NCBI GenBank assembly: GCA_001430755.1
Contig: CP013062.1
Location: forward strand, 210,001-242,000
Source of the DNA: Candidatus Peribacter riflensis
GTDB taxonomy: Bacteria > Patescibacteriota > Gracilibacteria > Peribacterales > Peribacteraceae
Direction: 5' to 3'
DNA length: 32,000 nt
Shown here: one piece after another, positions 9,889-11,498 of the stretch
Numbering within the stretch: the first letter of the stretch is position 1
Layout of the letters: each line of letters opens with the position of its first letter
Notes under the pieces: model-generated
Databases searched by the model: none
Seen by the model: only the letters and a program-made list of their open reading frames with translations
Told to the model about the DNA's origin: nothing
Translations under genes and position numbers: made by a program

Positions 9889-10695
9889 TCACGAAATCAA
9901 AAACTGCACCAGTGCGAGGCTGATCAAAATCACGATGAGACCGATGGCCACGCGCACCACCAGGTTCTTTGCCCGTGTGTACTGTTCGTCCTTGCCCAAA
10001 TTCACGATCATGAGCAGGCCGGCCCAGATGAGTACGATGGTCGCAACGAACGCGCCGAAACCGAGCAGGACTTTCACGAATGTGGAGATGATGGAGAGAA
10101 TCTTTCCGGGTGTGCGCTCAATGACCACCGCATCCACGATGAGGAGTTTTGTGGCAATGAGGAGCACGCCGGCTCCCACGCCGAAGATCGTGCGCTTAAG
10201 GTGGGCGAGCCCGTCTTCCCCGCCGTAGCTGATCACGGCACGGATGCCGCTGACGATGATGAAGATGACGGCTGCGATGGCCGCGAGCGTCTCGAAGAAA
10301 CTCAAGAGCCCCTTCAGTTCCGTTGTGATGATGTCCGGTCCGCCGCCCTTGTAGGCCAGGTAGGCCTCGGCGACCCGCGGAGCCAGGTTGATGAGAATGA
10401 GCGCCGCAGAGACAGCCATGATGGTTTTCTTGGTCTTCTCAAACTGCCCCTCATCCTGACTGACGGTGAGCACCAGACCGGCGCGGACGATCATCACGAT
10501 GCCCACGAGTGAGACCAGGCCGATGAACGATTCCATCATCGTCTGGTAGATCGAGCCGAATTCCCCGCCGCCCAGCCCGGCCGAGAGGGCTCCTCCCACA
10601 TGCTGGATCGTATCTTCAAAGTATCCCTGCGCGGCCATGGGAGCCGTCAGGAGGAAGGCGGTGATCAGCCAGCGCGCGGCGGAACGGATGGTCAT
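9889..10695 (-). CDS. Secreted polytopic membrane protein with three VirB2/TrbC-like (T4SS-pilin-like) two-helix modules (268 aa)
   Basis: Signal-peptide-like N-terminus (LITAFLLTAPMAAQG). Three helix / charged-loop / helix modules with loops VSQDEGQFEKTKKT, SYGGEDGLAHLKRT and NLGKDEQYTRAKNL. This is the pattern recalled for CPR/Gram-positive T4SS pilin-like proteins. Not verified by search. Confidence 0.55.
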   Translation of the reverse strand: MTIRSAARWLITAFLLTAPMAAQGYFEDTIQHVGGALSAGLGGGEFGSIYQTMMESFIGLVSLVGIVMIVRAGLVLTVSQDEGQFEKTKKTIMAVSAALILINLAPRVAEAYLAYKGGGPDIITTELKGLLSFFETLAAIAAVIFIIVSGIRAVISYGGEDGLAHLKRTIFGVGAGVLLIATKLLIVDAVVIERTPGKILSIISTFVKVLLGFGAFVATIVLIWAGLLMIVNLGKDEQYTRAKNLVVRVAIGLIVILISLALVQFLIS

Positions 10696-11498
10696 GGCCT
10701 GATGATGAAGAAGTTGACGAGCGCACCGGCAGACACGACGACCACGATGGCAATGAGACTCGCAGTGGCAAGCTTCTTGGCACGGTCCTTGAAGCTCTCA
10801 TCCACCGAGACAATGAGCAGAATGCCGGCCACGATCAGGGCCACCACTGCCAGAAGGCCGAAGATCGTGATGATGTAGTTGGCGATGCCTATGAGTTCGA
10901 TTTCCCCTGCGGAAGGGCTTTTGCCATACATCATGTGCACGATCGGCGAGGCGAGCAGCACGATGGCCGCGCCGTAGACACCGTGCAGAAAGCGCGTGCG
11001 CGCCTTGGTGACGCCTCCTTCCTCCGTGGCAGTGATCATGCGGAATCCCTGAATGGTGATGTTCACGAGCAGGGCCACCGCGATGATGGCCTTGATGAAG
11101 GTGATGACGGTCTCCAGTACGGTATTCACACCTGCGGGCTGGACCACTCCTCCCGTCACGAAGCTCGAGGCAATCAATTGGGCGCCCAGCATGAGGATGA
11201 CGCCGAAGAGCGCGTACTCCAGGGCCTGGCGCGTCTCGGTCACGGCGTTATCACTTTCCGGTGTCATGAGGAGCTTGATGCCGTAGTAGAGGATCGCACC
11301 GAACAGGAGCCCCGTGAACGCGGTGCGCGCTCCGTCCAGGATGGTGGAATCGATGTACGATGCGAGATCCCCGCCGAGGCACGAAATGCCGGGCACGACG
11401 CAGGTCTGGATGATGCCCGGATCCGGATTGGACGCAGCGAGCACGGCCGAGGGGAGAGCCGCCGCCACTGCACCGAGGGTCGTGAGGAGCTTTCGCAT
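10692..11498 (-). CDS. Paralogous secreted polytopic protein with three VirB2/TrbC-like modules (268 aa)
   Basis: Start placed at ATG 11498 (MRKLLTTLGAVAAALPSAVLAAS, signal-peptide-like); the ORF-track start 11897 adds an implausible R-rich leader. Module loops are MTPESDNAVTETRQAL, ATEEGGVTKARTRF and SVDESFKDRAKKLA. Shares a 4-nt ATGA overlap with the downstream paralog. Confidence 0.55.
   Translation of the reverse strand: MRKLLTTLGAVAAALPSAVLAASNPDPGIIQTCVVPGISCLGGDLASYIDSTILDGARTAFTGLLFGAILYYGIKLLMTPESDNAVTETRQALEYALFGVILMLGAQLIASSFVTGGVVQPAGVNTVLETVITFIKAIIAVALLVNITIQGFRMITATEEGGVTKARTRFLHGVYGAAIVLLASPIVHMMYGKSPSAGEIELIGIANYIITIFGLLAVVALIVAGILLIVSVDESFKDRAKKLATASLIAIVVVVSAGALVNFFIIRP

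Follow-up and report, generated by a model that had tools for sequence, protein, structure and literature searches.

Tandem proteins with three VirB2-like pilin hairpins each in Candidatus Peribacter riflensis

Two adjacent genes of Candidatus (Ca.) Peribacter riflensis, a tiny groundwater member of the Peregrinibacteria within the candidate phyla radiation (CPR), here named A and B, each encode a protein with three VirB2-like pilin hairpin modules. They lie in a stretch of 32,000 nucleotides (nt) of contig CP013062.1 (assembly GCA_001430755.1, positions 210,001 to 242,000), which was analysed as a whole and is called the window; feature coordinates refer to it. By sequence and hairpin topology, A and B are assigned to the VirB2/TrbC-type pilin superfamily. 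We propose that each of them is a chain of concatenated pilin subunits and that the two co-assemble to form the pilin-like element of a dispersed, non-conjugative apparatus resembling a type IV secretion system (T4SS) and served by an orphan VirB4, a reading to which we give an even chance. What A and B build may be a filament or conduit, or else a platform in the membrane.

Three pilin hairpins per protein

Gene A (10692-11498) and gene B (9889-10695) are both read from the minus strand, and each yields a precursor of 268 amino acids (aa). A begins with a likely signal peptide and a conserved N-terminal tail with Cys residues, after which come three VirB2-like pilin hairpin modules; B consists of a likely signal peptide and three such modules. 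The genes share an ATGA stop/start overlap at 10692-10695 (minus strand), with the TGA of A at 10694-10692 and the ATG of B at 10695-10693. This arrangement of adjacent, coupled genes of equal length had been noted in a preliminary description of the window and was confirmed by the listing of open reading frames (ORFs) and their translation. The two loops quoted there, SVDESFKDRAKKLA and NLGKDEQYTRAKNL, were found at aa 231-244 of A and aa 232-245 of B, respectively. A and B are 29% identical across 237 aa (BLASTP, E 3e-9) and, on their sequences, are paralogues. In the family alignment the Met of MRK... is the start in all homologues, and 11498 is therefore taken as the true start of A. A 401-aa ORF for A with a mechanical start at 11897 was rejected as spurious, because it overruns the divergent Bax1-I gene.

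The Pfam model PF18895 (T4SS_pilin, 71 positions, curated cut-off of 26.6 bits) matches whole B with 54.7 bits and whole A with 51.0 bits, in three separate collinear stretches of each protein. The count of pilin matches is thus three for A and three for B, in line with the earlier view of a signal-peptide-like start followed by three modules akin to VirB2/TrbC. The second model, PF04956 (TrbC/VirB2, cut-off of 27.9 bits), is passed by B with 33.8 bits; whole A gave no TrbC match. When the modules are scanned singly against PF18895, modules 1, 2 and 3 of B score 26.6, 19.1 and 32.3 bits and those of A 13.9, 31.1 and 26.9 bits. Four of the six pass the cut-off by themselves, and A module 1 is the weakest. 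The TrbC scores of lone modules are 19.8 bits (A module 2), 17.3 bits (B module 2) and 20.6 bits (B module 3). The NCBIfam model NF045849 (Mbov_0395 pilin-like) gives 30.7 bits for B and 15.7 bits for A, both below its cut-off of 40; its alignments fall on module 3 in B (E 1.8e-7) and on module 2 in A. In profile-profile comparison of module against module, E values range between 5e-3 and 8e-11, and nine of the 15 pairs are at or below 1e-5; judged by these comparisons, the threefold repeat is not due to chance. No match to TrbL/VirB6, PrgH or another polytopic T4SS family was obtained for A or B (Pfam, E up to 10), and a sequence-profile search of the PDB with the family also returned no match.

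Unrelated six-helix membrane proteins could gather pilin matches through their hydrophobic composition, since profile matches to transmembrane helices can be spurious; two of the six modules indeed fall below the cut-off when scanned singly, and A lacks a TrbC match. Such an artefact is regarded as extremely improbable here. Scored whole, each protein reaches about double the curated cut-off through three collinear, full-length matches; four modules pass singly, and B independently passes PF04956. An acidic-then-basic pattern is found in each intra-module loop and a Gly recurs in the first helix of every module, in register (G73, G150 and G226 in B), while the neighbouring polytopic Bax1-I protein has no such match.

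Both N-termini show basic residues, then a hydrophobic stretch and then an AxA-like site (judged by eye), and are likely signal peptides. In A, the signal peptide MRKLLTTLGAVAAALPSAVLA (11436-11498, minus strand, aa 1-21) would be cleaved before AS, a site read by eye from the ALA/AS consensus; the hydrophobic peak at aa 4-22 reaches the hydropathy cut-off. The signal peptide of B (10624-10695, minus strand, aa 1-24) ends in ...LLTAPMAAQG before Y, with cleavage after AQG24 likewise read by eye. Its segment MTIRSAARWLITAFLLTAPMAAQG lies below the hydropathy cut-off, and the signal assignment was made by eye. The mature N-terminal tail of A (11325-11435, minus strand, aa 22-58) carries a strongly conserved ASNPNPGIIQTCVVPGISCLGGDLASY motif. 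A21, P25 and P27 are nearly invariant in the A-family alignment, as are Cys33 and Cys40 inside the very conserved tail motif ASNPNPGIIQTCVVPGISCLGG. The predicted location of the A tail is extracellular, and N-tails are poor in Lys and Arg across 150 sequences.

The modules of A span 11154-11324 (module 1, aa 59-115, with its hydrophobic helix pair at 60-78 and 92-114), 10923-11153 (module 2, aa 116-192) and 10695-10922 (module 3, aa 193-268), all on the minus strand. In module 3, which has a near-invariant loop SVDESFKDRAKK, the family alignment shows no variation at S231 and next to none at K237, K241 and K242. Those of B, also on the minus strand, span 10348-10578 (module 1, aa 40-116), 10114-10347 (module 2, aa 117-194) and 9892-10113 (module 3, aa 195-268); module 3, with the loop NLGKDEQYTRAKNL, is the best conserved across the 150 sequences. 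In a hydropathy scan, B shows six hydrophobic helices and A the signal segment plus five helices, the fourth helix staying under the cut-off.

The hairpin plan is also seen in a confident AlphaFold2 model of B built from the 150-sequence alignment, with a mean predicted local distance difference test score (pLDDT) of 87.3 and a predicted template modelling score (pTM) of 0.67. It supersedes a run with 57 sequences (pLDDT 70.5, pTM 0.45). The model contains six long helices (46-78, 82-113, 119-155, 160-193, 197-231 and 236-267) arranged as three hairpins, with breaks of just 3-5 residues between the modules. At the N-terminus, a helix at aa 3-20 is followed by a low-confidence linker. Across the 150 sequences, Lys and Arg amount to 7.55 per ~45 residues of intra-module loop, versus 2.42 per ~90 residues of the mature N-tail, the two inter-module linkers and the C-tail pooled, a density about six times higher in the loops. 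By the positive-inside rule, this bias makes the loops cytoplasmic and puts the tail, the linkers and the C-terminus outside. The expected topology of A and B is thus the membrane topology of VirB2 three times over.

A Foldseek search of the PDB with the whole-chain models returned nothing significant (best E values of 0.4 and 0.74, template modelling score of at most 0.26). Solved VirB2/TraA pilins are single hairpins, and the lack of a whole-chain match is therefore expected; it neither supports nor refutes pilin homology.

Six transmembrane helices per protein with short connecting loops would also suit a membrane-resident platform or channel of the VirB6/CedA kind, that is, a non-polymerising translocon or a base for another assembly. 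We regard this as possible, although unlikely. The CedA N-terminus is homologous to the CedA1 pilin (PMC9905601), and the strong conservation of A (mean column identity of 67% in the A-family alignment) suits a core machine part. Moreover, VirB6 homologues are reported to be absent in class Gracilibacteria in the survey by Quinonero-Coronel et al. 2025 (PMC12102498), which would leave that role unfilled. However, membership of Peribacteria in the Gracilibacteria set could not be confirmed from the readable part of its supplement. The absence of any TrbL/VirB6 or other polytopic T4SS match, the lack of a large extracytoplasmic domain and the end-to-end match of all three modules to the pilin model also speak against a VirB6-like protein.

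A conserved pair, its fusions and longer chains

Homologues of B (n = 27, 267-298 aa) and of A (n = 30, 240-299 aa; PF18895 recorded for 28 of the 30) come, where a source is named, mostly from Peribacteraceae or Peregrinibacteria, and those with visible source names are labelled 'hypothetical protein'. Proteins identical to A and B are also present in Rifle aquifer assemblies. A locus survey with one genome per GTDB species and an A-only alignment as query yielded 43 loci, all but a few labelled Peribacteria or Peregrinibacteria, with identities to the A of the window down to 28%. In most of them an A-like gene is followed by a B-like gene at -4 to +5 nt, and most share the slot in which the pair is flanked by Bax1-I on the A side and phosphorylase/PGM on the B side; in several loci, only one gene of the pair was picked up by ORF calling. 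Because this housekeeping position is conserved in most of the loci, down to 28% identity, A+B is read as a core gene pair that has been inherited vertically, not as cargo of a mobile element. The triple-module fusion in tandem thus stands as first described, whereas the idea of a one-off arrangement gives way to a large family conserved across Peribacteria. One 5.9-kb contig labelled Kiritimatiellales (L036, JAIPIN010000059.1) carries a Peribacteria-type A+B pair and is probably mis-binned.

The most conserved neighbour of the pair is Bax1-I, found in 33 of the 43 loci in divergent orientation with a median gap of ~118 bp upstream. It is treated as genomic context only. RNase III, NusB, EF-Tu, S10, PGM, phosphorylase, a Pterin_bind protein and guanylate kinase are the other conserved neighbours. 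The ATGA overlap in the window and the tight A-then-B spacing in most related loci point to co-expression. A promoter-like site, TGGTCA-17-TACAAT with TG (11509-11537, minus strand), ends 10 nt upstream of the A ATG and is a candidate operon promoter, from which the transcript would be nearly leaderless. The scan found one site against 0.5 expected, and the site is a consensus match only.

The family is large: a search with an A+B profile against 1.84 billion representatives retrieved 21,192 proteins at E <=1e-3, of which 290 lie at E <=1e-30. Modules were counted with a single-module hidden Markov model (HMM) in 145 of the best 150 representatives. Three modules were found in 127 chains, four in one, five in two, six in eight, seven in two, eight in one, ten in two, 11 in one and 16 in one. 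The representatives of 240-330 aa (n = 125) comprise 78 A-like and 47 B-like proteins.

Three proteins of 557-595 aa (P0058, P0059 and P0060), in separate 50%-identity clusters, consist of an A-family half followed by a B-family half. P0060 (L011 5875-7662) occupies the slot between Bax1-I and PGM, as the A+B pair does. These natural fusions suggest that A and B act together and that the C-terminus of A and the mature N-terminus of B lie on the same side of the membrane. In the fusions the former B signal peptide is kept as a weakly hydrophobic linker (e.g. ...SLHPLLFVETAHAQ...). Extra fusions in two further loci (L043 and L039) proved to be upstream ORF over-extensions in high-GC DNA and were discarded.

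Longer chains were also found. P0082 (L013 10001-15328, 1775 aa) contains at least 16 VirB2-like hairpin modules with Cys-containing linkers between them. It adjoins a Cas4-like gene and a ribosomal L39e gene, and from the latter its contig is taken to be archaeal. P0121, P0132 and P0175 resemble it, with 10-11 modules. In other CPR members, chains of 7-8 modules by the module HMM (L014 9925-16481 and L012 4904-9252) are followed by PKD-domain surface proteins, and L014 additionally has a 155-aa single-hairpin pilin and a 383-aa pilin-PKD fusion downstream. Pilin chains next to PKD proteins are hints of pilin-anchored adhesins.

Concatenated VirB2 hairpins (three here, six in the A-B fusions and at least 16 elsewhere, including an archaeon) might represent an undescribed 'poly-pilin' class that builds an envelope tube or pore of fixed stoichiometry in CPR bacteria and some archaea. 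Its assembly would be unlike subunit-by-subunit polymerisation and possibly free of VirB4. We hold this broader proposal to be rather improbable. If joined hairpins do form a filament or conduit, the accepted account, in which conjugative pili grow from single subunits extracted from the membrane, would have to be widened. Among the lineage-specific proteins of CPR/Patescibacteria, VirB2-like pilins rank with the most abundant. A protein with three joined subunits, paired with a second one and sometimes fused to it, limits the possible assemblies, and A and B offer a natural pre-linked construct for structural work.

Genomic context and the proposed apparatus

The preliminary description had listed no VirB4, VirB6 or VirD4 gene in the 32 kb, and Pfam annotation of the window agrees. 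No T4SS gene was found within ~10 kb past either window end, and hence no complete T4SS cluster lies immediately outside. Large unannotated proteins just beyond the ends (847 aa, 1876 aa and a partial one of 854 aa) contain no T4SS domains; the latter two, which have no Pfam match, lie just past the window together with a ParE/Phd toxin-antitoxin pair. The pair thus does stand outside any T4SS cluster, but the genome is not free of T4SS genes. In the published gene table of Ca. P. riflensis (supplement of PMC4736985), gene _599 is a VirB4-like ATPase (K12063, E 7.8e-46, above threshold) at 665.5-667.6 kb. It lies ~445 kb from the A+B pair, between ArgRS and a RecJ-like gene. B appears in the same table with a sub-threshold KEGG virB2 match and A as hypothetical, and a term search of the table for 'VirD4' and 'TraG' gave no entries.

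Other genes of the table are candidates for further dispersed T4SS parts. Directly upstream of the VirB4-like gene, _598 encodes a 278-aa hypothetical protein; _625 and _626 encode a 219-aa membrane protein and then a 258-aa protein with a weak TraC match, and _888 a 153-aa protein with a weak VirB7 match. According to PMC12102498, chromosomal T4SS genes of Patescibacteria mostly occur without relaxases and VirB2-like pilin arrays are present; in class Gracilibacteria, T4SS genes are mostly not clustered with virB4 and relaxases are rare. A dispersed T4SS layout in Peribacter would fit this Gracilibacteria pattern, and the readable part of the supplement of that survey contains no Peribacter or Peregrinibacteria names.

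In the proposed explanation, A and B would be exported by Sec, each as a covalent chain of three VirB2/TrbC-type hairpins. Both termini and the two linkers between modules would lie outside, and the basic loop within each of the three modules would be cytoplasmic. Co-transcription and translational coupling would favour roughly equal amounts of the two proteins, and their co-assembly would bring six hairpins together per A+B pair. This pair may be the building block of a chromosomal T4SS-like apparatus typical of Patescibacteria, served by the VirB4-like ATPase. With the hairpins joined, a filament or conduit wall would contain them in fixed order and ratio, as in rotary-ATPase c-rings, and a trans-envelope or extracellular A+B structure could serve host contact. 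In the one CPR bacterium tested, T4SS genes were reported to be essential for epibiotic growth (PMC12102498).

Several points weigh against such an apparatus. Two usual attributes of a VirB2 pilin, the small single hairpin and the linkage to VirB4, are missing in A and B. Known VirB2/TraA pili are described as assemblies of single-hairpin subunits, and a covalent trimer with inter-module breaks of 3-5 residues may, as modelled, be ill-suited to a pilus mechanism that handles single subunits. The whole-chain model is without a solved structural counterpart in the PDB searches. None of the 43 loci has a T4SS gene less than ~10 kb from the pair, and shared presence in one genome is therefore all that ties it to VirB4. 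Among ORFs of at least 400 aa with a Walker A motif in 59 loci, no VirB4-like ATPase was found; we take the motifs there to be of the EF-Tu, ABC and Clp types. In PMC12102498, a VirB2-like filament is reported as not shown in any CPR bacterium and the monoderm T4SSs of the related MPF-FATA class as having no VirB2 pilin. The external tail of A is very conserved, unlike the variable pilin arrays of other CPR described there.

The missing T4SS linkage in all 43 loci and the housekeeping block around the pair would also suit a T4SS-independent envelope structure derived from pilins and made without VirB4, e.g. a self-assembling helical-hairpin pore, tube or membrane scaffold; a different envelope structure had been suggested as a possibility in the preliminary description. 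Longer chains are widespread (at least 16 modules in an archaeon, 7-8 beside PKD proteins in CPR) and suggest pre-assembled walls, perhaps without subunit-by-subunit extraction. The ring-forming c-subunits of rotary ATPases provide a parallel, as their hairpin of two transmembrane helices has been duplicated, triplicated and repeated 13-fold per chain (PMC2359735). We nevertheless judge this explanation quite improbable: a VirB4-like ATPase is kept in a 1.25-Mb genome of ~1,100 genes, and no VirB2 homologue is known to have a T4SS-independent role.

The remainder of the window is mainly occupied by housekeeping genes (PheS, UDG, guanylate kinase, asparaginase, PGM, phosphorylase, Bax1-I, NusB and RNase III, as well as S10, EF-Tu, an HhH-GPD glycosylase and RNase Y). 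The gene of the Bax1-I/YccA-family membrane protein (PF01027) lies at 11614-12303 on the plus strand, divergent from A. On the other side, the alpha-glucan phosphorylase gene (8088-9884) is convergent with B; the two stops (9884-9889) are 4 nt apart, without space for a terminator between them. A 61-aa ORF without Pfam match is found between Bax1-I and NusB (window ~12360-12550; L001 8049-8234), and every relative for which a gene table was inspected has it in the same place. Two giant secreted, Cys-rich proteins with DUF4215 repeats are encoded on the minus strand at 16897-20034 and 20012-26821, with a start/stop overlap of 23 nt. As ORFs they measure 1045 and 2269 aa, and as called genes 1030 and 2277 aa; the larger one contains Golvesin_C. 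The 1045-aa protein has two near-identical internal copies of more than 100 aa each, beginning ...IIY.GD.IPQP.L.LK.EGPTYGPVDTPYTLTAVVENTGD... At 28972-31356 (plus strand), a 794-aa protein combines lamin-tail (LTD) and PKD domains with long Ser-rich linkers.

Comparison with known systems

The VirB2/TrbC/TraA pilins share with A and B the Pfam-level homology, the order of helix, charged loop and helix, and the basic loop residues, and their N-terminal signal peptide has a likely counterpart in A and B. In contrast to these pilins, A and B have three hairpins per chain of 268 aa (the one single-hairpin pilin seen measures 155 aa) and occupy a chromosomal housekeeping locus without adjacent VirB4, VirB6 or VirD4. 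The Mbov_0395 family (NF045849) of mycoplasma integrative conjugative elements is described by an 80-position hairpin model that aligns to A and B modules. A model of this size suggests one hairpin per protein, and the family name points to an integrative conjugative element.

The VirB2-like arrays of Patescibacteria, as presented in PMC12102498, are similar to the pair in that adjacent, divergent PF18895 paralogues lie on a CPR chromosome without relaxase; the identity between A and B (29%) compares with an array mean of 25%. However, the arrays consist of 2-11 separate pilin genes, whereas in A and B the multiplication has taken place inside the polypeptide. They are also reported to be highly variable and to lie near virB4 in 1135 of 1948 assemblies, while the A+B pair is highly conserved and not near virB4. 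The array of Ca. Southlakia epibionticum is essential, as cited in the same work. In a full-text literature search, PF18895 was discussed only in PMC12102498 and in a structure-clustering preprint. The passages searched in the former hold no mention of multi-hairpin pilins, and a literature search for fused, tandem or multiple pilin domains with VirB2 gave nothing relevant. The triple-hairpin pilin architecture was not described in the papers searched.

Like VirB6 and archaeal CedA, A and B are multi-pass proteins with at least five transmembrane helices (six in the model; six for B and five for A in the hydropathy scan). Beltran et al. 2023 found the N-terminus of the VirB6-like CedA to be homologous to the CedA1 pilin, the likeness between VirB2 and VirB6 being weaker (PMC9905601). 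Unlike VirB6 and CedA, A and B show neither TrbL/VirB6 similarity nor a large loop domain, and consist of pilin modules throughout.

The c/K proteolipids of rotary ATPases, finally, offer an analogy only. They belong to a different machine and have no sequence relationship to A and B, but the covalent multiplication of a hairpin is common to both, with 3-16 modules per chain in the A/B family. The likeness is one of evolutionary logic; if joined pilin hairpins do build a filament or conduit, the hairpin multiplication of the c-rings would become a general rule for hairpin polymers.

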